64,000 bases of DNA from Candidatus Poseidoniales archaeon (GCA_045567955.1 JBJLBX010000013.1:2226-66225); one strand, 5' to 3'; positions 6,959 through 45,214 are shown, numbered from the stretch's first letter. The notes: generated by a model from the sequence alone, not told the origin. Translations and numbers: made by a program.

Positions 6959-8881
6959 ATGGCCGTAGAAGACGTAGTTAAACTAGTCAAGAAAGTCGCG
7001 ACAGAAGTCATACCAGATAGTGTATCTTTTACAGATGTAAAAGTAGAGGCGTCTAACGTAGTATTGTACACTCCAAATGTAGAAATTTTTACAGAGAATA
7101 ATGATTTGGTTCGTAATTTAGCCCAAAAAGTTAGAAAACGAATTGTAATCAAAGCAGATCCTAGCGTTAGAAAGCCAATTATTGCAGCTAAACAAAAACT
7201 TAATGAAATAATACCTGAAGAAGCAGGTGTAGTTGAGATTAAGTTCGATGAAATTAATGGCGATGTTATCATTGAAGCTACGAACCCAGGTAAAGCAATA
7301 GGAAAGCAGGGTGTAGTTCTCAATAAAGTTCGTAGAGAATTGGGTTGGAATCCAGTAGTCTTACGCTCAGCTCCAATGGAATCTAAAACATTGAAAGATG
7401 TTCGAAACTATATGCTTGGAGATAAGGTTGCGGAGGGTCGGAAGAAGTTTTTGGCTAAAGTTGGTAAAAAAATATTCCGTGATACGATTGATGGTGAACA
7501 ACATGTTAGAGTTACTGCATTGGGTGGTTATCGAGAGGTAGGTAGATCATGTCATCTATTAATGACTAAAGACAGCAAAGTATTGATTGATTGTGGTTTT
7601 AATCCTGGCAATGACAAAGAACCAAGTCCATTCCTTAGTGCACCTGAAGCGACGCCTTTAGAAGGAATAGATGCAGTAGTCCTTACTCATGCGCATTTAG
7701 ATCATTCAGCTTTACTTCCAATGTTGTTTGTTTATGGTTTTGATGGACCTATCTATTGTACTCCTCCAACAAGAGAATTATCTTCTCTTTTACAAAATGA
7801 TTTTATAAAAATTCAGAATAGTGAAGGCAAAAGAGTTCCATATAATACAGAACATATTCGTCAATCTATTAGAAATACGATACCTCTAAATTATGGAGAT
7901 ACAACAGATATTGCACCAGATCTCAAATTAACATTTCATAATTCAGGGCATATTTTAGGTTCTGCAGCAGCACATTTCCATGTCGGTGAAGGCCTATATA
8001 ATTTGGTTTTTTCAGGAGATATAAAATTTGAAAATACTTGGCTTTTTGATAGAGCAGTTAATAATTTCCCGAGACTTGAAGCATTAATTATGGAATCTAC
8101 ATATGGTGGTTACAAAGATTTCCAACCACCAAGAGAAGAAGGGACTAGAAATCTTACTGAGATAATTAATAGAACTGTTGAGAGGAAGGGTAAAATCTTG
8201 ATTCCTGTTTTTGCAGTTGGACGTTCACAAGAAGTTATGCTTGTTCTTGAAAAAGCCTATTCTGAAGGAAAGTTGAAGGACATGCCAGTATATTTGGATG
8301 GTATGATATGGGAAGCTACAGCTTTACACTCTGCATATCCAGAGTATTTGAACAATAATCTGCGAAATAAGATTTATCAAAACCAGGATAATCCTTTTAG
8401 ATCAGAAATTTTTAATAAAGTTGAAAGTCCTGAGATGAGGCAGGAAATTTGTGGGAGGGAAGAGCCCGCAATAGTTTTGGCTACTTCAGGTATGGTTAAT
8501 GGTGGGCCAGTTATGGAATATTTACGGCATTGGGCTCCAGATTCAAGAAATAGTATGATATTTGTGGGGTATCAAGCTTCAGGAACTATGGGGCAGAGAT
8601 TACAGCAGGGGGCTAATGAGATACATCTACATGATAGAGAAAATGGAGGTATGGTCCCAGTTAAAGTTAATATGAACTTAGAAACTTGTGAAGGTTTTTC
8701 AGGACATAGTGATAAAAGACAACTAATGAGATATCTAAGAACCATAAGACCACGTCCAAAGATAGTATTATTGAATCATGGGGATGCTCAAACATGTGAG
8801 CAATTTGCAAATGACATTAGAAGAAAAGTAAGATTAGATTGTAGAGTTCCACATAATCTTGAAACAATAAGGTTCTTATAA
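6959..8881 (+). CDS. aCPSF1-type KH / metallo-beta-lactamase / beta-CASP ribonuclease
   Basis: 640 aa. N-terminal KH-like region, metallo-beta-lactamase motif VLTHAHLDHSA and a beta-CASP C-terminal half. Confidence 0.9.
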   Translation: MAVEDVVKLVKKVATEVIPDSVSFTDVKVEASNVVLYTPNVEIFTENNDLVRNLAQKVRKRIVIKADPSVRKPIIAAKQKLNEIIPEEAGVVEIKFDEINGDVIIEATNPGKAIGKQGVVLNKVRRELGWNPVVLRSAPMESKTLKDVRNYMLGDKVAEGRKKFLAKVGKKIFRDTIDGEQHVRVTALGGYREVGRSCHLLMTKDSKVLIDCGFNPGNDKEPSPFLSAPEATPLEGIDAVVLTHAHLDHSALLPMLFVYGFDGPIYCTPPTRELSSLLQNDFIKIQNSEGKRVPYNTEHIRQSIRNTIPLNYGDTTDIAPDLKLTFHNSGHILGSAAAHFHVGEGLYNLVFSGDIKFENTWLFDRAVNNFPRLEALIMESTYGGYKDFQPPREEGTRNLTEIINRTVERKGKILIPVFAVGRSQEVMLVLEKAYSEGKLKDMPVYLDGMIWEATALHSAYPEYLNNNLRNKIYQNQDNPFRSEIFNKVESPEMRQEICGREEPAIVLATSGMVNGGPVMEYLRHWAPDSRNSMIFVGYQASGTMGQRLQQGANEIHLHDRENGGMVPVKVNMNLETCEGFSGHSDKRQLMRYLRTIRPRPKIVLLNHGDAQTCEQFANDIRRKVRLDCRVPHNLETIRFL

Positions 8882-9108
8882 TGAAAGAAATCGAAGATAA
8901 AGTTTTAGAAGTTATCAAAGAATTAGAAAGTTGGGAGAAAAGAGAAAAGAAGGTTAGACTTCGATTAGAAAAAGATGAAGCTGATATCTCTGAATTAGAT
9001 AGAATTAATGAACAAATTTCTCATTATCAGAGTTTGTTACATGATATGAAAAAGAAAATGTCATCAACCGACGTTTCACGTACGATTTTCCGTTCGGGAA
9101 ATCCATAA
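8881..9108 (+). CDS. hypothetical small coiled-coil protein
   Basis: 75-aa K/E-rich ORF whose ATG overlaps the aCPSF1 stop (TAATG). No family motif. Confidence 0.45.
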   Translation: MKEIEDKVLEVIKELESWEKREKKVRLRLEKDEADISELDRINEQISHYQSLLHDMKKKMSSTDVSRTIFRSGNP

Positions 9109-9138
9109 TAATATAGATATAGAATGCCTTTATCATTG

Positions 9139-9215
9139 GGTGAGGTGGCAGAGCCCGGCTATGCACGCGACTGCAGATCGCGACCACGGGAGTTCGAATC
9201 TCTCCCTCACCACCA
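9139..9215 (+). tRNA. tRNA-Cys (GCA), CCA encoded
   Basis: Hand-folded cloverleaf. Acceptor GGTGAGG/CCTCACC, anticodon stem CGCGA/TCGCG with loop CTGCAGA, T arm GGGAG-TTCGAAT-CTCTC, discriminator A followed by CCA. Confidence 0.9.
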
Positions 9216-9218
9216 ATT

Positions 9219-10898
9219 TCACATTCGGTTAGGAGCTTTGATCCCCAGTATTTCTAAACTAGTTTTCAATATTCTTTTTGAAGTGGTTACTAAATTTATT
9301 CGTAATTCTTCACTATTATTTCCTAAAACAGGGCAATCACGATAGAATTGGTTGAAATTTGAAGCTAATTCATGAGTATAATTTGGAATATAGTGAATCG
9401 ATAAATTTGAAACAGCTCTTTGAACAATATCAGGCCATTTAGAAAGAGTTCTCAAAAGTTTTATTTCCGAATTAGACAATTTTTCATTTAACAATACGTC
9501 AGGTATATCTTTTCCATAATTTCGCATTATAGCAGCAGCCCTAGCATGTGAGTACATTGCAAAAGGGGCTGAATCACCTTGCAAGTTAAGAGCGTCTTCT
9601 ATGTTAAAAGTGAAACCCTTTTCAGCTTGTACTTTGAGAATATTATACCTAAGAGATCCTATGCCTATATTTTCAGCTAATTTATTTTTAATATTATTAT
9701 TTAACTCAGTTTCATCTAGTTTCTCTTTTGCTAACTTAACAATCTTTTCCATAATCTCATCTAAGTAGACAACTCTACCAGCTCTAGTGGACATCTTGCC
9801 TCCTGGAAGATTAACAAAAGAATAAAATAAACCTGTTGGTTCTTTAGAATTTAATTCTCTTAGAGCAATGCCTAATAATTTACTTTGTAATCGATGATCT
9901 TCTCCCAATACATTTAGGGCTTTGTCATATTTTTCAAATTTATAAAGATGATAAGCAATATCTCTGGTTGTGTAAAGACTTAATCCATTTTTTCGTGTAA
10001 AAAAGAATTTTTGGTTTCTTCCTGCTATATTTTCACTTTTCAAATCTAAGTAATATGCTCCATCTTCCTCTTTACATAAATCACTATTTTTTAAACTCCC
10101 AATTACTTTTTCTACACTTCCATTTGCTATTAAATCAGATTCATGATAGTAGGTATTCGCCTCAGCACCTAGTCGTTTCAGGGATATTTTCATTCCTTCA
10201 AGCATTTTTTTTGCAGATTCTTTTACTTCTCCAAGTACTTCTAAATCACCCCCTTCAATTTTTTCCATTTTTTGATAAATCTTATCTTTTACATCATCAT
10301 CTTCTTCTAATAGTTTAGATGCCTTTCGATACGCTTCTACTAATTCATGGTCAATTTTATTTTTATTTTTAGCTTTATAATCAGATAATCCAAAAGCTAA
10401 AGTTGCAGCCTGTCTGCCAGTATCATTCACATAGTATTGAGTTTCTACATTGTGTCCATAATATGTCAATAATCGGGCAATACTATCTCCAATTATTGGG
10501 TTTCGAGCTCTTCCCATGTGGAAGGGGCCTGTAGGATTAGCAGATGTGTGTTCGACTAGTATTTTATCAATATTGCCTTTTGTTTTAGCATACGAATCAT
10601 TATTTATTTCATCGATAACATCAATTACAATATCATTCCAGTTAATTATAACATTACAGTATCCCTTTTCAGGTTCAGCAGAGATTACTTGTTCGATGTT
10701 TTTGAGTTTAGAAGCAATTTGAGTAGCTATATCCAAAGGCTTCATTTTCAATATTTTTGCAGCAGGAAAACATACTAAAGCAAAATCACCGATAGGGGGT
10801 TTCAAGTCAACAGGTAGGTCAGGCCAATTCAAATCCTTTGTTATAGATGATACTCTTTCTAAAATCTCATCTATCCTGTTTGCTACTATCTGACTCAC
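9219..10898 (-). CDS. argS: arginyl-tRNA synthetase
   Basis: Class-I HIGH-type motif HTSANPTGPFHMGRARN. 559 aa. C-terminal anticodon-binding domain ends in a terminal Met (…APNRM). Confidence 0.9.
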   Translation of the reverse strand: MSQIVANRIDEILERVSSITKDLNWPDLPVDLKPPIGDFALVCFPAAKILKMKPLDIATQIASKLKNIEQVISAEPEKGYCNVIINWNDIVIDVIDEINNDSYAKTKGNIDKILVEHTSANPTGPFHMGRARNPIIGDSIARLLTYYGHNVETQYYVNDTGRQAATLAFGLSDYKAKNKNKIDHELVEAYRKASKLLEEDDDVKDKIYQKMEKIEGGDLEVLGEVKESAKKMLEGMKISLKRLGAEANTYYHESDLIANGSVEKVIGSLKNSDLCKEEDGAYYLDLKSENIAGRNQKFFFTRKNGLSLYTTRDIAYHLYKFEKYDKALNVLGEDHRLQSKLLGIALRELNSKEPTGLFYSFVNLPGGKMSTRAGRVVYLDEIMEKIVKLAKEKLDETELNNNIKNKLAENIGIGSLRYNILKVQAEKGFTFNIEDALNLQGDSAPFAMYSHARAAAIMRNYGKDIPDVLLNEKLSNSEIKLLRTLSKWPDIVQRAVSNLSIHYIPNYTHELASNFNQFYRDCPVLGNNSEELRINLVTTSKRILKTSLEILGIKAPNRM

Positions 10899-10928
10899 AA
10901 ATATGTTGTACTAAAAGGGGGTATAAGC

Positions 10929-11687
10929 TTATCCAATATATCTTGAAATGGAAGATGAAACTTCAGGAGGGGCTTGTTCCCTTACATTTTGTACTTCCTG
11001 TTCGAGGTTTTTTGCTTCTTTAAGTAATGGTTTTGGATCTAGTTCAATAGCTAATAAAAGTTCATCTATAGCTTTGATAACATCGGCTGCAGCTCTTGCA
11101 TCTGGAACATCTTCACTTACTTCAGCTAAAAGACCAAGAACATTGAAATCAAGTATTTTCCCTTCATTCAAAAAAGCGGCAGTGGTTCCTCCGACAGTTC
11201 CAAAAGTAAATGGTTTTACTTTTGCATCTTTAATCCACGGTCTAGCTCCAATCGTGGAAGTTATGCCATATACATCATTATTATCACCCTTTTCTTTTGG
11301 AGGTGAGCTGAATCCTTCGGCTGAAATTATCTTTTGACAACCTTTCTTAATAGCCCAATTAGTTAGTGAACTAACCAATTCCTTAATCATTTCAGGGGGT
11401 GGTGTGAATTCACTTACACAGACTACAACTCGGTTACAGGTTCCATCATTACAAAATTGTTTACCAGAGTATAGTCTTAACGGATTATGTGGTTCTCCAT
11501 TCTTAATTATCGAAATAGCAGGAAAATTAGGGCTATCTATTATTCCTATTTGCTCTAATTTTAAAGTATTAATTAGAAAATTTGAAACAATGGTACCAAT
11601 AAGTCCCACGCTAGGAAAACCTACAATTAAAACAGAATCTTTTAAATCTTTTTCAACTATTTCATGAATTACTATGGACTTATTCAT
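10929..11687 (-). CDS. PAC2-family (proteasome assembly chaperone-like) protein
   Basis: 252 aa. The N-terminus (LIVGFPSVGLIGTIVSNFLI...) and overall layout resemble archaeal PAC2/PbaB-like proteins. The family call is from memory of the pattern only. Confidence 0.5.
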   Translation of the reverse strand: MNKSIVIHEIVEKDLKDSVLIVGFPSVGLIGTIVSNFLINTLKLEQIGIIDSPNFPAISIIKNGEPHNPLRLYSGKQFCNDGTCNRVVVCVSEFTPPPEMIKELVSSLTNWAIKKGCQKIISAEGFSSPPKEKGDNNDVYGITSTIGARPWIKDAKVKPFTFGTVGGTTAAFLNEGKILDFNVLGLLAEVSEDVPDARAAADVIKAIDELLLAIELDPKPLLKEAKNLEQEVQNVREQAPPEVSSSISRYIG

Positions 11688-12058
11688 AGAAGTTCATCAA
11701 GATCAGCATCGTCTTCTAAATCTGGAAGATCAGCATCATCGTCTAATAGGTCACCCAAATCGTCGTCGATTTCATCATCGTCATCACTAAAATCTTCTTT
11801 TAGTGAATCACTTCCGCCACCAACAACTTTTAAGCGAGTCCATAGTGAAAATTCCGAAATATCACTTCTGCTTGCAAAACGGTTAGCATCACTAACTGTG
11901 CGGAATTTACCTAAGATAGGGTCACCTTCACCAGGGTCAGCAGGAAGCATAACATATCTTTCTTTATTGACGATATCACCGACAAGAAGCCGGACAGCTT
12001 TTAGAACATCAGGATTAGATTCAGACATTTTTAACTCAAACATCCTATCTAGCCTCAT
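11684..12058 (-). CDS. hypothetical protein with poly-acidic C-terminal tail
   Basis: 124 aa: an ~80-aa globular part followed by a D/E-rich tail (DFSDDDDEIDDDLGDLLDDDADLPDLEDDADLDELL). 4-nt overlap with the downstream PAC2-like gene. Confidence 0.55.
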   Translation of the reverse strand: MRLDRMFELKMSESNPDVLKAVRLLVGDIVNKERYVMLPADPGEGDPILGKFRTVSDANRFASRSDISEFSLWTRLKVVGGGSDSLKEDFSDDDDEIDDDLGDLLDDDADLPDLEDDADLDELL

Positions 12059-12126
12059 TTAAATAATTTTATGGTGACTCCAATATAAACCAAAGGAGTT
12101 ATTTACTCATTTGTTTCAATGATATT

Positions 12127-13149
12127 ATGTCTAATCGTAAATCTCTTGTTTTAAGAGGTGTTGCAGAATGTGTTACAGAAGAAGAACTAGATAAGTTACT
12201 TTCTAATAAAAATAATCCCAAAGCATATATTGGTTTTGAACCATCTGGATTGCTACATGCAGGTTCATTGGTTCCAATGTTAAAGTGTAAAGAGCTTGTT
12301 GAAGCTGGGTTTGAAGTTATTATTCTTTTAGCAGATTGGCATGGTTATATCAATGATAAACTTGGAGGTAATTGGGATAATCTAAAGGCAGGTGTAGATT
12401 ATCAAAGACAGATGTTTTCAGTTTTTTGCCCTGGTGTAAAATTTAGAACTGCAAGTGAATTAGTTAAAGAAGAAGGATATTGGGAAATGGTCCTTCGTGT
12501 TTCAAAAGCAAGTAGTCTCAAGCGAATGCGTAGGGCTCTTTCAATTATGGGTAGAGATGAAGTAGATGGGGATAAGGACATGTCGAAGTTTTTTTACCCT
12601 GCAATGCAAGCAACAGATATTTACGCACTTAATGTCGATTTAGCTTTAGGTGGTATGGATCAGCGCCATGCACATATGTTAGCAAGAGATGCCGCAGACA
12701 AGTTAAAACTATCCAAACCAGTTGCATTACATACACCTCTTCTTGGTTCATTATCAGGCCCAGGGAGAATGGATGCCGATGCTAAGATGTCTAAATCCAA
12801 TCCATCAGGAACTTTGTTAATTCATGATAACAAAAAGGTTTTAACTAAGAAATTATCAAAGGCATATTGTCCATTAGAGAGAGAGGGTAATCCTGTTCTT
12901 GACATATGGGAGCACTTACTTGAACCAGCATTAGATAAAATTGTAATCGAAAGACCTGAAAAATTTGGTGGTAATTTAGAGTTTGATTCTTATTCTGATT
13001 TAGAAGAATCTTACCTTTCAGGTTCATTGCATCCATTAGATTTGAAAAATGGTACTGCAGCAGCTCTTTTTCAGGTGGTAAAACCAATGCAGGGCGCCTG
13101 TGATGAAAACTCAGAGTATTATGATTCTTTAGTTTCTAGTTTAGAATGA
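12127..13149 (+). CDS. tyrS: tyrosyl-tRNA synthetase (archaeal type)
   Basis: AYIGFEPSGLLHAGS, LLADWHGY, GGMDQRHAHMLARD, KMSKS and KAYCP...EGNPV, co-linear with my memory of M. jannaschii TyrRS. Confidence 0.9.
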   Translation: MSNRKSLVLRGVAECVTEEELDKLLSNKNNPKAYIGFEPSGLLHAGSLVPMLKCKELVEAGFEVIILLADWHGYINDKLGGNWDNLKAGVDYQRQMFSVFCPGVKFRTASELVKEEGYWEMVLRVSKASSLKRMRRALSIMGRDEVDGDKDMSKFFYPAMQATDIYALNVDLALGGMDQRHAHMLARDAADKLKLSKPVALHTPLLGSLSGPGRMDADAKMSKSNPSGTLLIHDNKKVLTKKLSKAYCPLEREGNPVLDIWEHLLEPALDKIVIERPEKFGGNLEFDSYSDLEESYLSGSLHPLDLKNGTAAALFQVVKPMQGACDENSEYYDSLVSSLE

Positions 13150-13202
13150 TAAAATTGAAATAGTAAAAAAACGAATAGACTCAAGATTATGAAATGGGGA
13201 AT

Positions 13203-15781: not shown

Positions 15782-18184
15782 TCAGTTTAATTTTAATATT
15801 TTGAATAAATTAGGCCCTACTTTTACTTCATCACCTTCTTTAGCTCCTTCTAGTGCTTTTCCGATAGGATTTGTTAAAGGTATTTTTCCATTCTTAGGAT
15901 CAACTTGGTCTGGATTTACAAGTTCAAAATTATGTTCAGTTTCTTTTGTTAAGTTCTTAACTATGACGCTTGAACCAATAGCTGCTACTGGTATTTCTGA
16001 ATTAGTAACTGGTGCGGATGGCTCTTTTACAGCTTTATCGATGCTTTCAATTCTTGCTTCATCAATCTTCTTAGATAAATCTAAATTTTGGCTGCTGAGT
16101 TCATCAGCCTCTTCTTTCATTTCTCTTGTTACTTCTTTATTTTTTGGTACTTCTATTTCCATAGCTTTTATCTTTCTTTCAGTATCTTCTTCATTTCCAA
16201 TGGTGGTTCCTTGGAGAAATTCTAAATCTTCTTTCAATTTTTCATGTTCCGTTCTTTCAGTTTCCAGTGATCTTTCAGCTTGGTTCCTCTCATCCATAGA
16301 AATATTTAGTTCAGCTTTAGCATCATCAAATTGTTTTTTCAAGCTTTCCATTACCTTACTAACTTGTTTTGAAGCATTTTCTAAAGTATCAAGATCTTTT
16401 TTAGTTTTCTTTTTTCTTTCAGTTTCTTCTTTTAATTCATCTTGAATTCCTGCATTAGATGTGTTTTGTTCAGTAACTTGTTCTTGTAATTCTTTTAAAG
16501 AGTCAGTTAGGCCAATGATTTCACCTTCTTTTGCTCTATATTTTTCAGATTCTTGCTGTAATTCTACAATCGTTTCTCTTTCTAAATCCAATTCACTTAA
16601 TGTAACAGCTGCCTTTTCTCTTGCTGAGGATAGGTCTTTTTTGGCTTTTTCTATGCTACTAGTAAGTGTTGTAAATTTGTCATTTATACGTTTTTTATTC
16701 TTTTCCATAAGTTTCACTTCTCTATCTAATTCTTTTCTTCTTTGTGCAGCTTCATTACGTTCAGCTTTAGCTGCTTTTTCTCTTTCATTTGATTCTAAGG
16801 TATGCTGTTCATAATCCATTATCTCTTTTTCAAGATTATTCTTTTCTTCAACTGTTTTATCATATGCTGCTTTTACAGAGTCATAAGATTCTAGAGCACT
16901 AATGGTTTCAGGTTTTTCAATTTTTAGTTTCTTTTCAGCTTCTATTGCTTTTTCCTCAGCATCTTCACTCATTTTCCTTAAAGAACCAATTTCACGCGTC
17001 ATTCTATCACTTAATCTCATATCATTTTCATGTTTAGCTCTCAAATCTTCAATTTCAGTTTCGAGATTTGTTTTCGCGGCTAAATCATCATTTAGTTCTT
17101 TTTCAGCCATCCTAGACCTTTTTTCAACTTCGGAAGTGGCTATCCTAGCAGTTTTTAGTTTACTTTCTAATGAATTGTTTAAAGTTTCTACGCTCTGATT
17201 GAGTGCAGTTAACCTATCTAATTCAATATTTAAATCATCAATTCCATCATAATCAATGCCTTCTGCAGCTGTTTTTACGTCCTGTATTTTTTTCTCAGCA
17301 TTCCTTAATTTTTCCTCAGTATCCTCGAATTCTTGAAGGAGATCTTTGTTTTTCTCAATTTCTCCGTCTTGTATATTTTGTTGTCTTTCAATTAAATCTT
17401 GTTTTTTCAATATGTGTTGCCATTCTTCATCAATATTTCCGAGGATATACAGTGTACCTCCACCTGTTAGAACACTTCCCAATAGAACAACAAAGAAACC
17501 AATTCCCGGGCTCCATGTAATTGGCGTAACTCTTGCAACAATTATGTCTGCAGTACCTTCATTTTCAGCCTTAACAGTTTCTATACAAGAACCACTGCCG
17601 TAAAAAGTTAGAGGAGTGCTGACTATACAACCTAATTGGGATTCTTGACCTAATTCTGTACTTATGGCCGCTTCATCTTCCATTAATGCACCTGGCCATG
17701 CCATAGCGAATAATCCTGTAGTCAAGGAACCTAATACTAGGACTAGTATTGCTGAATATTTCAAGTTTTTAAGAACTTTCCTTAAATTTTTCTTATGTAA
17801 ATGTTTGATAGAGTCATTTGCCATATATGCAACAGCCATAGCCATAATCGCAGTACCATAAGCCAAACGTTCTATATTTTTCACTGCATTAATTTTGTTT
17901 ATACAAGATTCACAGTCTATTGAATAGTCATGATTTTCTTTAATGGCGTCATCAGAAGTAAATTTAACATATTTTGATAGATAATAACTGTATTCAAAAT
18001 AATATGAAGCTCCGGTAGCTTCTCCAGTATCTGGATCTACATTCTGTATTGTTCCGTTAACTTCAAACCATTCAGCATAATCTCCACTACTATGAATTGA
18101 GATTAGTATGACTAAGAAAGTAACAATGGCGACCGCTTGTATTTGTTGTAATTGCTCTTTCATGTGGACTACTTTTTGTCCCAC
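15782..18184 (-). CDS. 4-TM membrane anchor + ~470-aa coiled coil + GreA/GreB-like C-terminal domain protein
   Basis: Hydrophobic helices at aa ~17-30, 108-122, 143-163 and 225-247. An uninterrupted K/E/L heptad-rich region spans aa ~250-725. The C-terminal 70 aa match the Gre-factor CTD pattern. The true start may be the ATG at 18163 (see the TATA feature). Confidence 0.8.
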   Translation of the reverse strand: MGQKVVHMKEQLQQIQAVAIVTFLVILISIHSSGDYAEWFEVNGTIQNVDPDTGEATGASYYFEYSYYLSKYVKFTSDDAIKENHDYSIDCESCINKINAVKNIERLAYGTAIMAMAVAYMANDSIKHLHKKNLRKVLKNLKYSAILVLVLGSLTTGLFAMAWPGALMEDEAAISTELGQESQLGCIVSTPLTFYGSGSCIETVKAENEGTADIIVARVTPITWSPGIGFFVVLLGSVLTGGGTLYILGNIDEEWQHILKKQDLIERQQNIQDGEIEKNKDLLQEFEDTEEKLRNAEKKIQDVKTAAEGIDYDGIDDLNIELDRLTALNQSVETLNNSLESKLKTARIATSEVEKRSRMAEKELNDDLAAKTNLETEIEDLRAKHENDMRLSDRMTREIGSLRKMSEDAEEKAIEAEKKLKIEKPETISALESYDSVKAAYDKTVEEKNNLEKEIMDYEQHTLESNEREKAAKAERNEAAQRRKELDREVKLMEKNKKRINDKFTTLTSSIEKAKKDLSSAREKAAVTLSELDLERETIVELQQESEKYRAKEGEIIGLTDSLKELQEQVTEQNTSNAGIQDELKEETERKKKTKKDLDTLENASKQVSKVMESLKKQFDDAKAELNISMDERNQAERSLETERTEHEKLKEDLEFLQGTTIGNEEDTERKIKAMEIEVPKNKEVTREMKEEADELSSQNLDLSKKIDEARIESIDKAVKEPSAPVTNSEIPVAAIGSSVIVKNLTKETEHNFELVNPDQVDPKNGKIPLTNPIGKALEGAKEGDEVKVGPNLFKILKLN
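15785..15997 (-). other. GreA/GreB C-terminal-domain-like module
   Basis: AAIGSSVIVKNLTKETEHNFELVNPDQVDPKNGKIPLTNPIGKALEGAKEGDEVKV aligns position by position with E. coli GreA [56 protein letters not shown] (recalled from memory). Confidence 0.65.
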
Positions 18185-18188
18185 CTCC

Positions 18189-18196
18189 TATTTAAA
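18189..18196 (-). promoter_or_regulatory. putative TATA box (TTTAAATA) for the coiled-coil gene
   Basis: Consensus-like archaeal TATA read on the minus strand. It sits only ~5 nt from the GTG at 18184 but ~26 nt upstream of the in-frame ATG at 18163, which suggests a leaderless mRNA starting there. Confidence 0.45.
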
Positions 18197-18248
18197 GTTT
18201 CCTTTTTAGCGTTATTGTTTTTATTGTGTTTGTGCTAATATTCCCTCA

Positions 18249-18280
18249 GTTAACATTTTAACACCATGATTCTGTTAACA
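18249..18280. promoter_or_regulatory. two GTTAACA motifs 25 bp apart in the divergent intergenic region
   Basis: cAGTTAACAttt at 18249-18255 and cTGTTAACAatt at 18274-18280. The palindromic GTTAAC cores bracket an A/T-rich TATA-like stretch (ATTTTAAC) ~27 nt upstream of the ATG at 18285. Confidence 0.3.
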
Positions 18281-18284
18281 ATTA

Positions 18285-21200
18285 ATGAAGGTCTGTCCGG
18301 TCTGTCAATATGAAGAAGAACAAGATGATGAAGTGTCTTGTGCTATTTGTGGTTCAGATCTTGAATCTGAAGGTAGTATTATAGAAGAAATATCTTCAGC
18401 AAGTTCAGATATTAGTGAAGGAAAAAGTGGTGAGGTGAGTTCTGATATTGTTGAAGACAAAGCGACTTCTGAAAGTGATATTGAAGAATCTAGTTCTACT
18501 ACTGAATCCTCCATGACTGATGACGAAAAAGCAATGGAGGAGGTTTTATCAGCTTCAGAGGTTTCATCTTCAGATAAATCAGATAGTTCAAGTTCTTTTT
18601 CAGAGGTATTTTCCACTATTAAGGAATCGTTTGGAACTTTCTTTGGAAGACTTGATGGTTTTTTTAAGACAGATTCAAAAATAAATTATAAAGCTCCTTT
18701 AATGGCTCTCGTTGTCTCAATACTCTTATTTTTTTCAGTTATAGGCTTAGCAGTAACAACTGTTCCTTTACCAGATGAAGAATCTTCTGATGGCATGTTA
18801 CCTGTGTCTCCTTATCGTAAGAATGGAGTTGATATAGGAAGAGGAGTTTCCGATCCCTTTACAGGAGAGCCATTTAATTGTGAGATATGGGATGGTTTGG
18901 TTTATGAAGAATTTAGGGTAGAGGATGCTGAAGATCCTCTGATTACTTATGCAGTTACAGACACGAACCAAAGTGGAACCGTAGATAATAGCGAAAGGTA
19001 TGGTTGCTTTGTGAATATGAGTTGGATGAGTGGTATTTCGATTGTGTTTTTCAATATATGTTTATTTGTTTGTGCCTTATATCTGTATAATTCCGTTACA
19101 AATAAGTCAATACTTCAACCAATAATAGCCTTTGGTTTAGCTGAAGTTGTTTTATTTGTTATTTATGGTGGTATTCTCAATAAACTAATTGAGCCTTTAC
19201 TTTTGACAGTTGGTTTGGTTTGTACAATTTGTCTAATAGTTTCGGTAGGTGTGCTACTTGCTCGAGTAGTAAGAGAACGTACATTAGATGATCCACCTAG
19301 TTTAACTTTTTATTTGTTTATGATTGCTGTAGCACTACTGATTTCGTCAGTATTTTTCAATTATGCTCAGGGACCTTATTTAATTTGTACAGATGAGTAT
19401 GGTACTTCTCCACGAACAGAAATTATAGATGGCAATGTAACATTTATGGATTCTGAATTAGAGGAGATGAGAGCTAATATTGATTTTGAAGAACAAACAG
19501 TTTGTCAGAGAGTAGGGTACAAAGCATTACTTGTGAAACCATTCTATCTGGAGGGTGGCGGTTCAGATAGTATGATTCTTCTTTTAGCTTCAACATTTAT
19601 TTTCATAGGGGCTGGTAATTGGCTAATTTCAAGCACTAAAATTAGGGATATAGATGAAGCTAAATATATGACAATGATAATTTCAGGCCTTGTTTTACAA
19701 TTCTTGATTTTAGCGTATAATTTAGTTACAAACGGGGACGATGGTCTTGTTTTAGATACGAATGATACAATGTTAACAGTAATGGCCGTTGGTGTCGCTT
19801 CGGTTGGGCTTTTTTCATTTTATAAAAAACGTAAAGGTGATGCCAGCTCAATGGGTGTTGCATACTTTGGTATTTTTGCAGCAGGTATTTTTGCCTTATT
19901 TGGAACTTTTTTATCTCCAATATTAATAGGCGGTAATGACATAGAGATACCAAAAGATAGTGAAGGTAGATTGTATCTTTTATTAACTACTTTAGTCACG
20001 GCAATAGGATTCTGGTTAAGTTATAAATTTGGTTCAAAAAAGTTGCAAGAATTTTCAATTGCAAGCGATATGGCTATGCCTAATCGTGAAGATCCTTTTG
20101 CTCCAACAGTGCCAGGTCAGCAGGCAGCTATGCCCGAGTGGACTGTGGATTCAGCTATGGAATTCCTTATGCAGGAGTATGGAGATGAATTTCAGATTGA
20201 GCTAAAGCATACTACTGAACATACTCCGGATATGGCTCTTGTTGAAAAAACTATGATGGATAATGTGGACCAATCAGTTACTATTAGACAAGGGATAGAA
20301 GTTGATTATAATGTTAAATTTGAGGAAATAGCAGAGGCATATTCAACAACAAGAGACACAGTAGATGAAGTGATTACTCATTTAACTTCAGGTAAAAATA
20401 TTATGTTGTTCGGTGAGCCAGGAACTGGTAAAACTGCTTTATCAAATATATTATTGACAAAACTTTGTGGTGAGATAGATCAGCCTAATGGAAGTAAGGC
20501 TCCTAACTATACCATTGTGACTGCTAATGCCGAATGGTCTAATTTTGATGTTATTGGTGGTATTTCACCAGACGATTCAGGTGGTTATTATTTCAAGGAT
20601 GGATATGTAGCTGAGGCAGCTAAATTATGTGAAAAATCTATAGTTGAAACAGGAAGGCCCCATTATCTTGTAATTGATGAGTTTAATAGAGCCAATATCG
20701 ACGAAGCATTTGGTAAATTATTTACTGTTTTTGAATATAGAGATAAACAGCCATTATTGACGCATAAGGAAACTGGCGGAGCTCCATTTATGATGCCACC
20801 TGAGTTCAGAATTATTGGGACGATGAATACCCAAGATAAGAATACTCTTTTCAATGTAGGTTTTGCATTAATGCGTCGTTTTGCATTTGTTGAGATTGGT
20901 TTACCAGATCCTAGTGATGAATATAATAGAATGCCAGTATTCGTATATTTCAAGTTGAAGAAACTAGGTTTAGTTCCAGATAGGCCTGAAGGAGATGAAC
21001 TTTGGAAATTTGGAGAAAAATGTAAACACTTCCCAAGTCGTAAGTTTGATTTTTATGATGATGATGGTAATATGTATAAATGTCATGAAAAGTTAGTTAA
21101 ATTTTTAGCACCAGATGAGACGCCTAAACGTGGTGACGAAGTAGCAGTCGGTGTCCGTACTTTCCGTAAAATAGGACCTGCATTGTTGATTGATTCTATG

Positions 21201-21410
21201 GTTACTATTTTCAACTCTATTCAGAAATATGGTCCTGAATTAGCTCTTGATAAGGTTATTCGTTCCAATATTATGCCTTCCTTAGAAGGTTTAGAACGTA
21301 GTGAGATACGCTGTTTATTCTTAAAAGCTAAGGAAGTATTAGGGCCAAATTCAGTGGTAACAGAAACTTTCGATAGAATGGCAAACTCAGATAGTCTAAG
21401 TTTATTCTAA
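18285..21410 (+). CDS. zinc ribbon / acidic Ser-rich linker / ~10-TM domain / McrB-type AAA+ GTPase fusion protein
   Basis: 1041 aa. N-terminus is CPVCQ...CAICG, followed by an S/D/E-rich region (aa 25-110) and ~10 hydrophobic helices (aa 135-590). The C-terminal domain has Walker A GEPGTGKT, Walker B/NRA LVIDEFNRANIDEAFG and the McrB signature IIGTMNTQDKN...ALMRRFAFVEI. Confidence 0.85.
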   Translation: MKVCPVCQYEEEQDDEVSCAICGSDLESEGSIIEEISSASSDISEGKSGEVSSDIVEDKATSESDIEESSSTTESSMTDDEKAMEEVLSASEVSSSDKSDSSSSFSEVFSTIKESFGTFFGRLDGFFKTDSKINYKAPLMALVVSILLFFSVIGLAVTTVPLPDEESSDGMLPVSPYRKNGVDIGRGVSDPFTGEPFNCEIWDGLVYEEFRVEDAEDPLITYAVTDTNQSGTVDNSERYGCFVNMSWMSGISIVFFNICLFVCALYLYNSVTNKSILQPIIAFGLAEVVLFVIYGGILNKLIEPLLLTVGLVCTICLIVSVGVLLARVVRERTLDDPPSLTFYLFMIAVALLISSVFFNYAQGPYLICTDEYGTSPRTEIIDGNVTFMDSELEEMRANIDFEEQTVCQRVGYKALLVKPFYLEGGGSDSMILLLASTFIFIGAGNWLISSTKIRDIDEAKYMTMIISGLVLQFLILAYNLVTNGDDGLVLDTNDTMLTVMAVGVASVGLFSFYKKRKGDASSMGVAYFGIFAAGIFALFGTFLSPILIGGNDIEIPKDSEGRLYLLLTTLVTAIGFWLSYKFGSKKLQEFSIASDMAMPNREDPFAPTVPGQQAAMPEWTVDSAMEFLMQEYGDEFQIELKHTTEHTPDMALVEKTMMDNVDQSVTIRQGIEVDYNVKFEEIAEAYSTTRDTVDEVITHLTSGKNIMLFGEPGTGKTALSNILLTKLCGEIDQPNGSKAPNYTIVTANAEWSNFDVIGGISPDDSGGYYFKDGYVAEAAKLCEKSIVETGRPHYLVIDEFNRANIDEAFGKLFTVFEYRDKQPLLTHKETGGAPFMMPPEFRIIGTMNTQDKNTLFNVGFALMRRFAFVEIGLPDPSDEYNRMPVFVYFKLKKLGLVPDRPEGDELWKFGEKCKHFPSRKFDFYDDDGNMYKCHEKLVKFLAPDETPKRGDEVAVGVRTFRKIGPALLIDSMVTIFNSIQKYGPELALDKVIRSNIMPSLEGLERSEIRCLFLKAKEVLGPNSVVTETFDRMANSDSLSLF
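20380..20930 (+). other. McrB-family (AAA_5) GTPase domain
   Basis: Co-linear with recalled E. coli McrB FIIDEINRANLSKVFGE...YIIGLMNTADRS...ALRRRFSFIDI. Here the sequence is LVIDEFNRANIDEAFGK...RIIGTMNTQDKN...ALMRRFAFVEI. Confidence 0.8.
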
Positions 21411-21418
21411 GGTTAAGT

Positions 21419-21610
21419 CTAATGAGCGTGCATATCATTTCCACAGCACATTGGAGATTTAATCTTTCCACAACCACCAGGACATTTTGAAACGTCTACG
21501 GTTGAACCATCATCCTTAGTGAGTGTAGCGTGGACTAATTCTTTACCACATGCTCCACAATTCATTGCTGCAACTGACATGTCACAATTATGACAAACGT
21601 ATTTTCCCAT
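21419..21610 (-). CDS. small cysteine-rich (probable metal-binding) protein
   Basis: 63 aa with 8 Cys arranged as CxxC, CxxC, CPGGC and CC, and a C-terminal MHAH. It is the last gene of the minus-strand elp3 cluster. Confidence 0.55.
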   Translation of the reverse strand: MGKYVCHNCDMSVAAMNCGACGKELVHATLTKDDGSTVDVSKCPGGCGKIKSPMCCGNDMHAH

Positions 21611-25179: not shown

Positions 25180-25336
25180 TTTTCTCCATCATTGATGCAG
25201 CCATTGCATATCCTGGTAATATGTTACCTAAAAATAGTAAACTGGCTATAATATAGTGTTCTTTGGAAATGAAAGCGATTACACAAGATATTACTATAAT
25301 GTACATCAAATATATGTAAATTCTAGTTATATTCAT
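25169..25336 (-). CDS. possible 55-aa two-TM micro-protein (not in ORF track)
   Basis: Hand translation gives MNITRIYIYLMYIIVISCVIAFISKEHYIIASLLFLGNILPGYAMAASMMEKNEN. Its ATG overlaps the upstream stop (TAATG) and its 3' end overlaps the pepQ-like start by 11 nt. Confidence 0.3.
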   Translation of the reverse strand: MNITRIYIYLMYIIVISCVIAFISKEHYIIASLLFLGNILPGYAMAASMMEKNEN

Positions 25337-25926
25337 TAATTTCCTCCTAATATATTTTGAGTTATGTCTGGGCTGAAATCCATTGAAGATAAAAGAGTTA
25401 GAACAAGTATTGGTATTATTTGCATTGCAAAATCATCATCAAACCATTTAATTTTTGGTCTTTCAGAAGCTACAGCAACAATAGATCCAATTATGGAGTA
25501 AAATAACTCCCCAATTATTAATTGATAAATTAAAAAGCTACACAGTAGCCCTAATCCAATACCCCACTTATCTCCAAATCGTTTGTTTGCTTCGCCAATT
25601 AAAGGATCAGTATATGCAGCCATGATTATAGTTGCAATAGCTAGGCTTTGAGGAATAACATCTAATTCGTATAGTCCTAATATTAAGCATGTTCCAGTTG
25701 CGAACCATACAAATCCAGCTATTCTATTATTTTCATAGTCGCGCATTCCAAGGACTTTCAAATCTTTATTCAATCGTAAGTATTCAATAGTAACAAGGAA
25801 TATCCAAAAGAGTATGATAAAATATTCTCTTTTAATTCCTAGAATGTATTCTGGGAAAAGAAAATAAATTACAAAACATGCTGCAACAGTATGATTGAAA
25901 CGCCGGTATATTTGTTCATTAATCAT
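25336..25926 (-). CDS. polytopic membrane protein, possibly polyprenol/dolichol kinase-like (COG0170-like)
   Basis: 196 aa with ~6 hydrophobic helices. YRRFNHT and TDPLIGEANKRFGDKWG weakly resemble the cytidylyltransferase/dolichol-kinase family. Confidence 0.35.
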   Translation of the reverse strand: MINEQIYRRFNHTVAACFVIYFLFPEYILGIKREYFIILFWIFLVTIEYLRLNKDLKVLGMRDYENNRIAGFVWFATGTCLILGLYELDVIPQSLAIATIIMAAYTDPLIGEANKRFGDKWGIGLGLLCSFLIYQLIIGELFYSIIGSIVAVASERPKIKWFDDDFAMQIIPILVLTLLSSMDFSPDITQNILGGN

Positions 25927-42300: not shown

Positions 42301-43737
42301 CTAATCAAAGCTCTCATTTAACCATTTAGTTTCAATACGATTGTAGAAGAGTATGCTAAGTAATGCCAGAATAGCACATATAGAAGAAAGTGAGATAAGA
42401 ACTATCGAAACACTATATTTTATCGCCAAACTTAGGATAGTCATTGCAATCATTGGAGGTACTGAGACTACAAAAAATTTTAAGAATACAATTGAATCAA
42501 ATAATGCTGAATTTGTTCTTAGGCCTGTGGACCAGGCAGTATAATTTACAATGTACATACCAACCGTAATCATAACGATAATACCTATAGGCAAGAGATT
42601 TATTTCCGAACTCATATAGGAGATAATAGTTAAAAATAGTAAAGGGATCCACCATGTTATGGTAAAGAATAATACAAGTCTAGCTCTTACAACGTCTGAG
42701 ACTGAAATAGGTAGGGTCGAATAAAAATGAGGATTGTCTATGGTGTTTAGCCAAGAATAGATCATAGTACCAAAAAAGCCAACCATAACGGCATAGAAAA
42801 TTGTATTGAAATCAATTTGTATTGGTAAACCTTTGTCTATAAACCAATTCATAAATGTTAAAATTCCTAGAGGGAAGGCAAATGAAAAGAACATTTTTAT
42901 TCCAGTTTTACTTCTTTGTAAATCGATTCTTTCTTTTGCTATTATAGCTGGGTTTGAAATGTTTTGAGCCCATTTGAATTTTTTGATATACTCGTATAAT
43001 CTATTTTGGTATCCTATCATTTGAATTGGCGCTTGCTCATGATAGTCTGTAATTAGCAAGGTGGCAAAAATAGCGAGTAATATTGGAATTAGAATGGCTA
43101 TTATCATAAAGTTAGGATTATTACTTAGATACCATTCGAGCGACGCGGTGACTGATAAATCCTTGAAAAGAATAATGTACAGTATAGCAGTTGTTCCAGC
43201 ACCTATAATGCTTGTTTTCCAAGAAATTCTATATAGACTAGAAATAAGATAAGCAAAAGCTAATCCACTCAAAAAAGAAATACTTAATGTGAAACTAAAT
43301 TTTGTAAGATTTAGTAAGTTTATGTCATTGTAATATGCACCTAACATCCCACCAATAAATGCAGGTATAAGAGTAAAGAATGAATAAAATATAAATTCTT
43401 TGATAAAATATAGAAGTGTAATTTTCCGTTGTGTTATTGGTTGCGTATTTGGTAAGTTAATGATCATTCCTAAATATCCAAAAATTCTTTCTAGAAATTC
43501 ACTTCCAAAGAATGCTAAAGAACCTGCAAATAGACCATAAAACATTAGACCTATATGTAGTATTTCTAAATACTGAAAGTATCCCATATCAGCTATCATT
43601 TGCTCAGTAAAGATAACTGCAAGAAAGCCACTAATTGCAACAAGAATAGGAAAGGAATAGAATCCTCTTCCACTTGCAAAACTAGTATTCAATCTAATTT
43701 CTTCTTGGAGCATTCTCCATAATATTATTTTGTTCAT
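42301..43737 (-). CDS. ABC transporter permease (multi-TM)
   Basis: 478 aa with ~12 hydrophobic helices. 4-nt overlap with the upstream ATPase gene. Confidence 0.65.
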   Translation of the reverse strand: MNKIILWRMLQEEIRLNTSFASGRGFYSFPILVAISGFLAVIFTEQMIADMGYFQYLEILHIGLMFYGLFAGSLAFFGSEFLERIFGYLGMIINLPNTQPITQRKITLLYFIKEFIFYSFFTLIPAFIGGMLGAYYNDINLLNLTKFSFTLSISFLSGLAFAYLISSLYRISWKTSIIGAGTTAILYIILFKDLSVTASLEWYLSNNPNFMIIAILIPILLAIFATLLITDYHEQAPIQMIGYQNRLYEYIKKFKWAQNISNPAIIAKERIDLQRSKTGIKMFFSFAFPLGILTFMNWFIDKGLPIQIDFNTIFYAVMVGFFGTMIYSWLNTIDNPHFYSTLPISVSDVVRARLVLFFTITWWIPLLFLTIISYMSSEINLLPIGIIVMITVGMYIVNYTAWSTGLRTNSALFDSIVFLKFFVVSVPPMIAMTILSLAIKYSVSIVLISLSSICAILALLSILFYNRIETKWLNESFD

Positions 43738-44435
43738 AGGATTATTTCATGAAATAATTGTTCTAAATTTATGTTTTGTTGATCTAAATCATTCAGCTTG
43801 ATAACAGACTGAATTTCCCCCTCATGTATAATTGCAGCTCTATCACATAATCGTTGAGCATTTTCTAATAGATGGGTATTTAGAAATACAGTTCCACCTT
43901 CTTTTACATATTCTACTAACCAATCCCTGACTTTAGTTTGAACAATAGGATCTAAATTAATAAATGGTTCATCTAAGAACATTAGTTCAGTTTCAGATAT
44001 AAATGCAGCGGCTAACATTACTTTTTGCTTTTGTCCTCTTGATAAGTTACGACATACACGTCCTTCCATCGGTTGGAGATCAAAGAATTCAATCCAAAAT
44101 TCTATTTTTGGTTTCTCTATCTTTCTTATTGATGAGACCATTTCGAGGACTTCTCTTGGTGTGAGGAAACTGGGTGGTGATTCTTGCTCAGGTATAATTG
44201 CAATTTTTCTTTTAACTTCCATTATATTTTGTTCAATATTCATTCCTAATATTTCGGCATCTCCAGTTGTAGTTCGAATTTGGCCAGTTAATATTTTTAG
44301 AAGAGTAGTCTTTCCAGCTCCGTTCGGACCCAAAAGGCCAAAGAATTCTCCTTTTTCAATGGTTAAATTAACTTCACTAAGGGCCTGAACCTCATCATAT
44401 TTTTTTGAGAGCTCAGTACATTTTATGACATTCAT
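43734..44435 (-). CDS. ABC transporter ATP-binding protein
   Basis: Walker A GPNGAGKTT, signature LSRGQKQK and Walker B LMFLDEP. Confidence 0.9.
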   Translation of the reverse strand: MNVIKCTELSKKYDEVQALSEVNLTIEKGEFFGLLGPNGAGKTTLLKILTGQIRTTTGDAEILGMNIEQNIMEVKRKIAIIPEQESPPSFLTPREVLEMVSSIRKIEKPKIEFWIEFFDLQPMEGRVCRNLSRGQKQKVMLAAAFISETELMFLDEPFINLDPIVQTKVRDWLVEYVKEGGTVFLNTHLLENAQRLCDRAAIIHEGEIQSVIKLNDLDQQNINLEQLFHEIIL

Positions 44436-45094: not shown

Positions 45095-45214
45095 ATGGTA
45101 GATGAACCTAATACTCCAAAGAAGAAGAGAGTTACCAAGGGAGATAAGAAGGCAAAAAAGCATTTCAGTCGTTACAAGAAAGGTGGCCCTAAGAAACAGA
45201 GAGTTAAGTTGTGA
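45095..45214 (+). CDS. possible 39-aa highly basic micro-protein (not in ORF track)
   Basis: Hand translation gives MVDEPNTPKKKRVTKGDKKAKKHFSRYKKGGPKKQRVKL. Its stop overlaps the GTG start of the ROK kinase (GTGA). Confidence 0.3.
   Translation: MVDEPNTPKKKRVTKGDKKAKKHFSRYKKGGPKKQRVKL

Follow-up and report, generated by a model that had tools for sequence, protein, structure and literature searches.

The window analysed here is a stretch of 64,000 nucleotides from a Candidatus Poseidoniales archaeon (GCA_045567955.1, JBJLBX010000013.1:2226-66225). At positions 18285-21410 on the + strand it contains a gene in which a zinc ribbon, an acidic linker and a polytopic membrane domain with 10 predicted transmembrane (TM) helices are fused to a McrB-type AAA+ module, as judged from the open reading frame (ORF), its translation and its homologues. 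The ORF is single and uninterrupted, begins with ATG and encodes 1041 amino acids (aa). About 30 Poseidoniia genomes, most of them labelled Marine Group III, hold two paralogous ribbon-TM-motor fusions, which we designate class 1 (the window gene and its orthologues) and class 2. The N-terminal zinc ribbon CPVC...CAIC (aa 1-26, 18285-18362, + strand), predicted to be cytoplasmic, is defined by cysteine conservation, since C4/C7 and C19/C22 are nearly invariant in an alignment of 19 homologues; the ribbon of a class 2 relative gives weak Pfam matches to Zn_Ribbon_1, Zn_ribbon_3 and DZR. It is followed by a low-complexity linker rich in Ser, Asp and Glu (aa ~27-130, 18363-18674, + strand), recognised by its composition (28.6% Ser, 14.3% Glu and 9.5% Asp over residues 31-135), which varies in length and sequence, aligns poorly between orthologues and has a predicted local distance difference test score (pLDDT) of about 25 in an AlphaFold2 (AF2) model. 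The membrane domain (aa ~131-590, 18675-20054, + strand) was delimited by hydropathy and by the helices of the AF2 model. It leads into a cytoplasmic juxtamembrane linker (aa 591-690, 20055-20354, + strand) that occupies the same position as the N-linker of McrB, is 79-99% identical between orthologues and contains a segment, ...VDY.V.F..I...YSTT..T..., that is retained as far as relatives in the Planctomycetota. The AAA+ core (aa 691-872, 20355-20900, + strand) was assigned from Pfam, NCBIfam and Protein Data Bank (PDB) matches and the C-terminal region (aa 873-1041, 20901-21407, + strand), presumed to comprise the AAA+ lid plus an extension and ending in the tail ...SDSLSLF, from its conservation (88-96% identity between orthologues).

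Searching for homologues yielded 61 proteins, the majority of them full-length and 51-99% identical, which derive, where a source is named, from Poseidoniales, Poseidoniia or Marine Group II/III archaea. The fusion is unbroken in more than 35 independent assemblies, single-cell genomes included. The four-part architecture proposed in an earlier sequence-only reading is therefore borne out, and the membrane and motor parts do not separate into distinct genes when the locus is sequenced again in other genomes. That the fusion merely reflects mis-assembly of, or read-through between, distinct genes for a membrane protein and an ATPase has next to no chance of being the correct explanation: the point in its favour is one relative, L007, in which the gene appears as three ORFs, and these abut or overlap as frameshift errors in a long-read assembly would, while a full-length relative of 876 aa exists. 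We therefore rejected a fusion artefact, since the fusion persists across independent assemblies and its motifs are invariant in the 19 homologues.

The motor gives a Pfam AAA_5 match over aa 705-866 (E=2.7e-19), and the best NCBIfam model is McrB (E=2.7e-18), with the GvpN model at 2e-4; the score against NCBIfam PRK11331 is 66 bits, which lies below the equivalog cut-off of 637 and hence below the level of a McrB equivalog. When 177,635 PDB sequences were searched with phmmer, only McrB of E. coli (E=3e-19) and McrB of Thermococcus gammatolerans (E=8e-16), represented by structures 6hz4 and 6ut3, were significant, the next match having E=0.007. Four motifs are invariant in the 19 homologues: Walker A, GEPGTGKT (aa 710-717, 20412-20435); Walker B, LVIDEFNRAN (aa 795-804, 20667-20696), which aligns with McrB IIDEINRAN; MNTQDKN (aa 847-853, 20823-20843), an NxxD motif that aligns with McrB MNTADRS; and ALMRRFAF (aa 861-868, 20865-20888), which aligns with McrB ALRRRFSF, all on the + strand. 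The definition of the MNxxD signature motif follows Bell et al. (eLife 2024, PMC11090510). By each of these sequence-level tests the motor is of the McrB type and belongs to the NxxD branch. The McrB signatures had been read in canonical order in the sequence-only reading, and the invariant motifs, the AAA_5 match and the restriction of PDB matches to McrB uphold this. The same reading had confined the motor to the C-terminal ~190 aa, which has to be revised, as the module comprises the last ~350-450 aa (linker 591-690, core 691-872 and C-terminal region 873-1041).

We use the term NTPase for this motor, since the motifs do not reveal nucleotide specificity and the earlier label of GTPase is unproven. 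In canonical McrB, guanine specificity resides in the N-linker, and ATP and GTP are hydrolysed indiscriminately by non-canonical homologues (bioRxiv 10.64898/2026.08.31.748284); the linker at aa 591-690 gave no alignment with the McrB N-linker. Several homologues carry the Joint Genome Institute (JGI) name MoxR-like ATPase, which we rejected as neither the motifs nor the partner fit: MoxR, RavA and CbbQ structures gave no PDB match at E<=1, Pfam AAA_3 did not match, and no gene with a VWA domain, the type of partner found with MoxR, is present among the neighbours in the window or in orthologous loci. Identity as GvpN was likewise rejected (21 bits against a cut-off of 267), and PADLOC returned weak matches at the level of the P-loop only. 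The C-terminal tail, S-x-(G/S)-L-S-(V/L)-F(-G) (aa 1034-1041 of the window protein), is conserved from archaea to Planctomycetota, being common to class 1, class 2, the archaeal locus L010 and the Planctomycetota relatives described below. It may act as a docking motif because it resembles the hydrophobic-aromatic-X docking tails of other AAA+ rings.

Hydropathy analysis of the membrane domain identified nine strong TM segments (aa 139-157, 249-267, 280-298, 305-323, 340-358, 430-448, 463-481, 495-513 and 530-548) and a weaker tenth at ~564-585, and the AF2 model likewise places 10 helices at the same positions. Positively charged residues typical of the inside follow TM4, TM6, TM8 and TM10. 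The topology put forward earlier, with ribbon and motor in the cytoplasm and two loops outside, fits this positive-inside pattern and is a prediction; the two Cys-bearing external loops that it contained are found at aa 158-248 and aa 359-429, each with two invariant cysteines. External loop 1 (18756-19028, + strand), as defined from alignments, contains C199 and C241 and the motif GEPFNCExWD. External loop 2 (19359-19571, + strand), similarly defined, contains C368 and C407 and is preceded by a conserved NYxxGPY. All four cysteines are invariant in the 19 homologues. Between the cysteines of loop 1 lies DTNQSGTVDNSE (aa 226-237, 18960-18995, + strand), a putative calcium-binding-type loop, DxNxxGxhDxxE, recognised by pattern only. 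The pattern is kept in the 19 homologues, is absent from class 2 and fits the spacing D-x-[DNS]-x-[DNS]-G-x-[ILV]-[DE]-x-x-E, and no Pfam model matches it. It agrees with 12 of the 13 positions of what we take to be the PROSITE EF-hand pattern, position 13 being the exception. In one subclade loop 2 carries insertions of 100-250 aa consisting of D/N/G-rich repeats; those of proteins P0038 and P0046 contain 7-8 [DN]x[DN]x[DN]G motifs, compared with 0.3 expected from shuffled sequences, and were not recognised by Pfam as TSP3 repeats.

Pfam gave no match to the TM domain, and when 1.84 billion representative proteins were searched with a profile built from aa 125-700, 32 matches were obtained, all of them family members or fragments. 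As far as sequence comparison can detect, the TM domain is thus an orphan with no relatives outside the family. The full-length AF2 model, based on the 19-sequence alignment, is poor (mean pLDDT 53, predicted TM-score (pTM) 0.37), and a Foldseek search of this model against the PDB returned nothing below E=0.1.

In long contigs the class 1 gene is always found within the same series of housekeeping genes, and the gene order leading up to it is ArgRS (arginyl-tRNA synthetase), PAC2, a TyrRS/TrpRS-type (tyrosyl- or tryptophanyl-tRNA) synthetase, DUF309, a thioesterase, an M3 peptidase and a gene for a companion protein of ~800 aa; beyond the class 1 gene it continues with an ORF of 63 aa, an AsnB-like gene, ELP3, an M24 peptidase and transcription factor B (TFB). 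Pfam analysis of 40 of the other ORFs of the window assigned 36 to housekeeping families and left 4 without a match, and identified no McrC, DUF2357 or PD-(D/E)xK family among them. Homologues of the class 2 partner, an McrC-like protein described below, were found by neither tblastn nor blastp in the 64-kb window or in ~36 class 1 loci, and no McrC or nuclease gene lies beside the class 1 gene in the window or in these ~36 loci. The earlier statement that there is no McrC partner therefore stands for the class 1 locus, in the window and in its orthologous loci, and fails for the sister class, in which a partner gene lies immediately downstream.

What the sequence-only reading missed is the constant companion of the class 1 gene. 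This protein is encoded divergently at 15782-18184 on the - strand and was characterised from Pfam, composition and conserved adjacency as a membrane, coiled-coil and GreA-C protein. It has 3-4 TM helices with Cys-bearing external loops, a region of ~470 aa rich in Glu and Lys that contains two prolines and has a hydrophobic periodicity of lag 7, in line with a coiled coil, and, at its C-terminus, a GreA/GreB-C domain (Pfam GreA_GreB, E=1.4e-12). Its start is probably the ATG at 18163 and not the GTG at 18184, as suggested by the aligned upstream regions of orthologues. GreA and GreB are bacterial factors, and a giant membrane-anchored 'Gre-like' protein in an archaeon is for that reason odd in its own right. 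The companion lies head-to-head with the class 1 gene, separated by a spacer of 60-100 bp, in all class 1 loci with enough upstream flank. In the CG-Bathy2-type loci of Marine Group III the other neighbours are all different (Nre, a histidine kinase, response regulators, OPT and AlaRS, alanyl-tRNA synthetase), and the companion/class 1 pair persists there at 34% and 70% identity; its retention amid different neighbours is the best evidence for a functional link. In the window the intergenic spacer (100 bp, 18185-18284), compared in an alignment of 13 orthologous spacers, contains two conserved TATA-like AT-rich boxes, CTATTTAAAGTTT (18188-18200) and CAGTTAACATTTTAAC (18247-18262), each ~25-35 nt from the ATG of its gene, which suggests back-to-back archaeal promoters giving near-leaderless transcripts. 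On the other side, a convergent 63-aa ORF (21419-21610, - strand), recognised by translation and conserved position, encodes a Cys-rich product with 10 Cys, MGKYVCHNCDMSVAAMNCGACGKEL...CPGGCGKIKSPMCCGNDMHAH. The ORF is kept in most class 1 loci, with 62-97% identical copies occupying the same position in ~20 of them, and in one locus (L003) the ORF is swapped for a redoxin gene. It has no Pfam match and probably encodes a small metal-binding protein; its tie to the class 1 system is uncertain.

The AAA+ core of class 1 is 97-100% identical among orthologous lineages. In the same lineages identity is 65-77% for ArgRS, 80-90% for TyrRS, 87-98% for ELP3 and 96-99% for TFB, while the TM helices of class 1 range from 41 to 94% and loop 2 from 35 to 99%. 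The external loops are the fastest-evolving part, with 35-65% identity where the motor has 98-99%. Relatives of the motor were surveyed with a search using the cytoplasmic module alone and a scan of one genome per GTDB species. Both classes are usually present in the same metagenome-assembled genome (MAG) or single-cell genome (SAG) and occur together in about 25 genomes, including AH-321-L02 and AG-343-N02. Each is mostly found in one copy per recovered genome, one MAG having given three class 1 matches, and their motors are conserved to a similar degree (mean identity 87.5% for class 1 and 88.6% for class 2 across 17 genomes). A scan of viral contigs in IMG/VR found no relatives. The host is a Poseidoniia archaeon, most of whose named relatives belong to Marine Group III, and in Marine-Group-III-type Poseidoniia both classes belong to the core genome and are inherited vertically.

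Class 2 proteins are ~67% identical to class 1 in the motor and ~25% in the TM domain, for which homology is significant (E=1e-19 to 1e-39). They share with class 1 the ribbon / TM / motor architecture, the TM-domain motifs NYxxGP[YW], DxxEAKY, FYRKR and AYFGIF and a related tail, and are equally conserved and syntenic; unlike class 1, they have a translationally coupled McrC-like partner and lack both the calcium-type loop in loop 1 and the coiled-coil/GreA-C neighbour. Class 2 genes were located in loci L014-L044, L072, L076 and L077 (for example L020, with the fusion at 8261-11101 and the partner at 11103-13199), and their surroundings also consist of conserved housekeeping genes (ABC/FtsX, a tRNA-intron endonuclease, DapB-like, ApbA, THUMP and ADSL). 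In all ~35 loci with enough downstream flank the class 2 gene is followed by a partner ORF of ~700 aa, with an overlap of ~10 nt. Class 2 and its partner were found on another contig in each of the three genomes in GTDB that are nearest to the window (88, 84 and 82% nucleotide identity), and the organism from which the window derives therefore almost certainly has a class 2 and partner locus as well. In locus L007 (8258-13173 of a 1.6-Mb long-read contig) the class 2 gene is split into ORFs of 533, 50 and 365 aa and the partner into ORFs of 257 and 453 aa, which abut or overlap; since related loci have intact single ORFs, we regard these splits as frameshift errors or pseudogenisation and not as genuine.

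Alignment of the class 2 partners reveals an N-terminal beta-rich region, a long helical middle and a C-terminal block; the partners also bear a long acidic tail. The block, GxPE(I/L)F...(F/L)E(A/C/T)(K/Q/R)Y...QxD(V/I)YKVLA(Y/F)M...GGIIYPG, mirrors by eye the sequence TDITIR...VDAKYY...NLYQLMNY...GGLLIYP of E. coli McrC. A nuclease-like motif, PE...ExK, is present in most class 2 partners; in several lineages another residue stands in place of the catalytic Lys (ExQ, ExR, DxI and TxL), and nuclease activity is therefore not universally kept. In profile comparison with hhalign, the partner matched a 453-aa protein encoded after a Haloglomus litoreum 'McrB family protein' (NCBI name) with a probability of 96.8% (E=2.6e-10 over 324 columns); the Haloglomus protein has a canonical PD...DAK and gives sub-threshold Pfam matches to PDDEXK_7 (0.019) and McrBC (0.034) at that spot. 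A word-index search for homologues of the partner returned only the query itself, and a single-sequence AF2 model was unusable (pLDDT 36), with non-significant Foldseek matches among which the McrC chain 6hz4_N ranked 29 (E=0.2). We consider the partner a putative divergent McrC equivalent, predicted to be nuclease-like, for which direct tests against McrC were non-significant. A search for McrC elsewhere in the genome, as recommended by the sequence-only reading, thus leads, in related genomes, to this McrC-like partner beside class 2.

Relatives with other architectures form, together with the two classes, a distinct subfamily of McrB that shares the family tail, extends from archaea to Planctomycetota and is 45-57% identical. 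The partner also occurs after the soluble motor of L010 (where it has 553 aa), after a Thermoplasmata gene in L066 and, in part, in a Planctomycetota cluster. In L066 (7832-12796, Thermoplasmata archaeon bin33, CP070751.1) a soluble protein combines TPR, an EVE domain (PF01878, E=8e-8) and two tandem AAA_5 modules and is followed by the partner, an arrangement that by sequence has the classical EVE-McrB layout; its motor module is 45% identical to that of the window. The first AAA module of L066, and likewise that of protein P0088, is degenerate in its Walker motifs (GPPGSGKE; INKMNKLD). A gene of the S-adenosylmethionine (SAM)-methyltransferase family lies just upstream of the L066 fusion. 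L010 (5552-11784), from another archaeal lineage and beside RNA polymerase genes, is a split-gene version: it encodes a surface protein of 634 aa that has two TM helices and one TSP3 repeat, a zinc-ribbon protein of 137 aa (Zn_ribbon_3, E=5.6e-8), a soluble motor of 462 aa, the 553-aa partner, which has lost its catalytic residues (PG...TLY), and a protein of 217 aa containing DnaJ-like CxxCxGxG repeats. In a Planctomycetales MAG (L012 / L069, 1-5553) the motor is fused to DUF4340; its gene is flanked on one side by that of a coiled-coil/TM protein and on the other by a Poly_export (Wza-type) gene, and the beginning of a partner-like gene is found where the contig ends. Sequence features strongly support descent of the lineage from McrBC-type systems because class 2 has retained an McrC-like partner with translational coupling, the EVE modified-base reader that typifies McrB occurs in a soluble relative, and L010 encodes the membrane protein, zinc ribbon, motor and partner as separate genes. 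The proteins make up an McrB subfamily not recognised before, with an LSVFG-type tail, an McrC-like partner of its own and variable input modules (EVE, DUF4340 or ribbon plus TM).

Comparison with characterised McrB (E. coli and T. gammatolerans; PDB 6hz4 and 6ut3-6ut8) places the similarity in the AAA_5 / H2-insert-type core, in which class 1 has Walker A, the DExNRAN form of Walker B, MNxxD(K/R) with a sensor-like Asn and the arginines of ALxRRF. Class 1 differs in having a zinc ribbon, an acidic linker and a 10-TM domain in place of a DNA-binding domain, Pfam having detected no DNA-binding family in its N-terminus, and in the absence of an adjacent McrC, the extra conserved C-terminal tail, the housekeeping core context and the extreme conservation. 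It departs from a McrBC restriction system in its score against the equivalog model, its N-terminus, the lack of an adjacent McrC and its location outside a variable island; the view that this is not classical McrBC restriction, voiced when the gene was first noted, is accordingly confirmed by the missing McrC, the N-terminus without a DNA-binding domain and the housekeeping synteny. The EVE-McrB fusion of L066 belongs to the same subfamily as class 1, but is soluble, keeps its partner and has a classical restriction-like layout.

McrB-like motors with N-terminal fusions that do not bind DNA also occur in the CoCoNuT and CoCoPALM systems. The CoCoPALM GTPase bears a fused FtsB-like segment with transmembrane and coiled-coil parts, an example of a McrB-like motor with a single TM/coiled-coil segment, and coiled-coil partners are prominent; CoCoNuT/CoCoPALM fall within the NxD-motif branch, retain homologues of McrC and hardly occur in archaea (Bell et al., eLife 2024, PMC11090510). 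We rejected membership in this group, as class 1 has NTQD (NxxD) as well as a polytopic 10-TM domain and is not accompanied by an adjacent McrC homologue. FtsH is an AAA+ ring of the classical AAA clade, tethered by N-terminal TM helices (2 per subunit) and equipped with an extracytoplasmic domain and a protease domain; as a tethered AAA+ ring it offers an analogy to class 1 only, with no homology beyond the AAA+ fold. Searches of the literature on McrB in Poseidoniales or Marine Group III, and on membrane anchoring of McrB, found neither a polytopic-membrane McrB fusion nor this paralogue pair described, and papers on DUF4340 offered no further information. To our knowledge, McrB-type motors are known only from McrBC restriction and its defence-island relatives, and have always been described together with the McrC nuclease.

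The reading that we favour, with a probability of roughly 0.45, is that class 1 is a domesticated, nuclease-less and membrane-anchored McrB-type NTPase with a mechanical housekeeping role linked to the membrane or envelope. A domesticated motor, as opposed to a restriction enzyme, is suggested because the nuclease has been lost, the synteny is that of housekeeping genes and the motor is conserved like transcription factor B; housekeeping synteny, equal conservation of the two classes, the lack of relatives on IMG/VR viral contigs and the gene surroundings of the Planctomycetota relative are unlike patchy defence loci with fast turnover and point to a fixed cellular role. In such a machine six class 1 subunits would, by homology, form a McrB-like ring that is driven by nucleoside triphosphate (NTP) and that the TM domains keep directly beneath the membrane, with the disulfide-stabilised and calcium-loop-bearing external loops facing the cell surface as an anchoring or input side. 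The cytoplasmic loops of TM6-TM9 (DxxEAKY after TM6 and FYRKR after TM8) and the juxtamembrane linker would couple the membrane domain to the ring, as suggested by the conservation of these loops between class 1 and class 2. In McrBC, NTP hydrolysis is stimulated by a docked partner (cited in PMC11090510). As in McrB, efficient hydrolysis would be expected to depend on a protein that docks on the ring or inserts into it, a role for which the divergent companion with its coiled coil and GreA-C domain is the best candidate and the class 2 McrC-like partner, acting in trans, an alternative. Possible jobs for the ring would be to organise or remodel a membrane-associated complex, or to couple the surface to a cytoplasmic target. 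A more far-reaching version, which we hold to be rather unlikely, is an essential and constitutive machine derived from McrBC, in which a hexameric ring with 60 TM helices would be worked by the companion in place of McrC and would physically link the cell surface or the membrane with a target in the cytoplasm, which might be the transcription machinery or the nucleoid. Such a machine would be without precedent among McrB-type AAA+ proteins, both for a housekeeping function other than restriction and for its polytopic membrane domain.

Several observations weigh against a domesticated motor. We infer ring formation, coupling and topology, since the AF2 model is poor and its Foldseek search returned nothing. 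What ties the companion to class 1 is conserved adjacency, and because synteny is high overall in this clade, the CG-Bathy2-type loci alone provide independent support for the pairing. The presence of both paralogues in the same genome is established by MAG and SAG membership and, for the organism of the window, through its relatives. The homology of the class 2 partner to bona fide McrC is indirect: Pfam analysis of 10 members was negative, as were phmmer and profile searches against the PDB, and comparisons with E. coli McrC by hhalign and hmmsearch were non-significant. Lastly, the McrBC/EVE ancestry and the fast-evolving, repeat-bearing loops would also suit a defence or receptor role. Membrane-tethered antiviral surveillance, in which the loops or the membrane domain would sense virus attachment, envelope breach or DNA entry and the activated ring would signal to an effector or recruit it, either the class 2 McrC-like nuclease or the coiled-coil companion, is a rival explanation, which we judge unlikely, though well within reach. 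Zorya and Kiwa, membrane-anchored defence sensors with long cytoplasmic coiled coils or membrane sensors, provide an analogy, and the long cytoplasmic coiled coil of the companion would suit such a system, as would the McrBC ancestry with its EVE-fused relative and the McrC-like partner of class 2, the PE...ExK retained in most of these partners, and external loops that evolve fastest and acquire lineage-specific repeat insertions. Defence genes, however, are not usually as conserved as TFB, which this motor is; both paralogues occur in nearly every recovered genome within conserved housekeeping synteny and not in variable islands, there is no nuclease at the class 1 locus, the catalytic Lys of the partner has given way to Q, R, I or L in several lineages, and the IMG/VR scan found neither viral homologues nor an anti-defence context. 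The earlier suggestion of a machine for sensing, remodelling or defence is consequently not decisively narrowed, with core synteny and extreme conservation weighing against ordinary defence.

Two further explanations would give class 1 a different place in the cell. As an obligate co-worker of class 2 it would enter mixed rings or borrow the class 2 partner in trans, so that one machine would be encoded at two loci. The joint occurrence in about 25 genomes, the TM-domain motifs and C-terminal tail common to both classes and their equal conservation (87.5 and 88.6% mean identity) are in keeping with this, and the tandem active and degenerate AAA modules of P0088 and L066 show that the subfamily tolerates hetero-rings; against it, the AAA modules are only ~67% and the TM domains ~25% identical, and each class has its own constant neighbour. 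We hold this proposal to be quite improbable. That class 1 is the energising subunit of an export or transport system, with the 10-TM domain serving as a passage through which the ring would drive a polymer or another substrate, on a principle comparable to that of polysaccharide-export machineries, appears very unlikely. The Poly_export (Wza-type) gene beside the Planctomycetota relative and the polar residues of TM6-TM9 that are invariant between the classes (Q472, N479, D494 and T498) could be accommodated by such a role, but the Planctomycetota protein has DUF4340 and not the 10-TM domain, the TM domain matches no transporter family by Pfam, profile or Foldseek searches, and McrB-type rings are unknown as membrane translocators.

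Elsewhere in the window, ARAGORN called a tRNA-Pro(GGG) at 46044-46119 on the - strand, which the Rfam tRNA model did not report at its gathering threshold and which overlaps the last ~22 nt of a ROK-family ORF at 45211-46065. Two ORFs on the - strand, at 42301-43737 (478 aa) and 25336-25926 (196 aa), have no Pfam match; the former adjoins an ABC ATPase gene (43734-44435) and may encode its permease.

The motor of class 1 has been welded to an orphan 10-helix domain, duplicated into two ancient paralogues and kept in core synteny. Of these paralogues, class 1 has shed the nuclease and gained a different constant companion, which is a candidate for a new type of partner for McrB rings. If the favoured reading of a domesticated motor is correct, a defence motor would have been exapted for cell biology in abundant uncultured archaea of the ocean. 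If the role proves to be defence, the system would represent a new design, a restriction-type motor that is lodged in the membrane and encoded as a permanent element of the genome.

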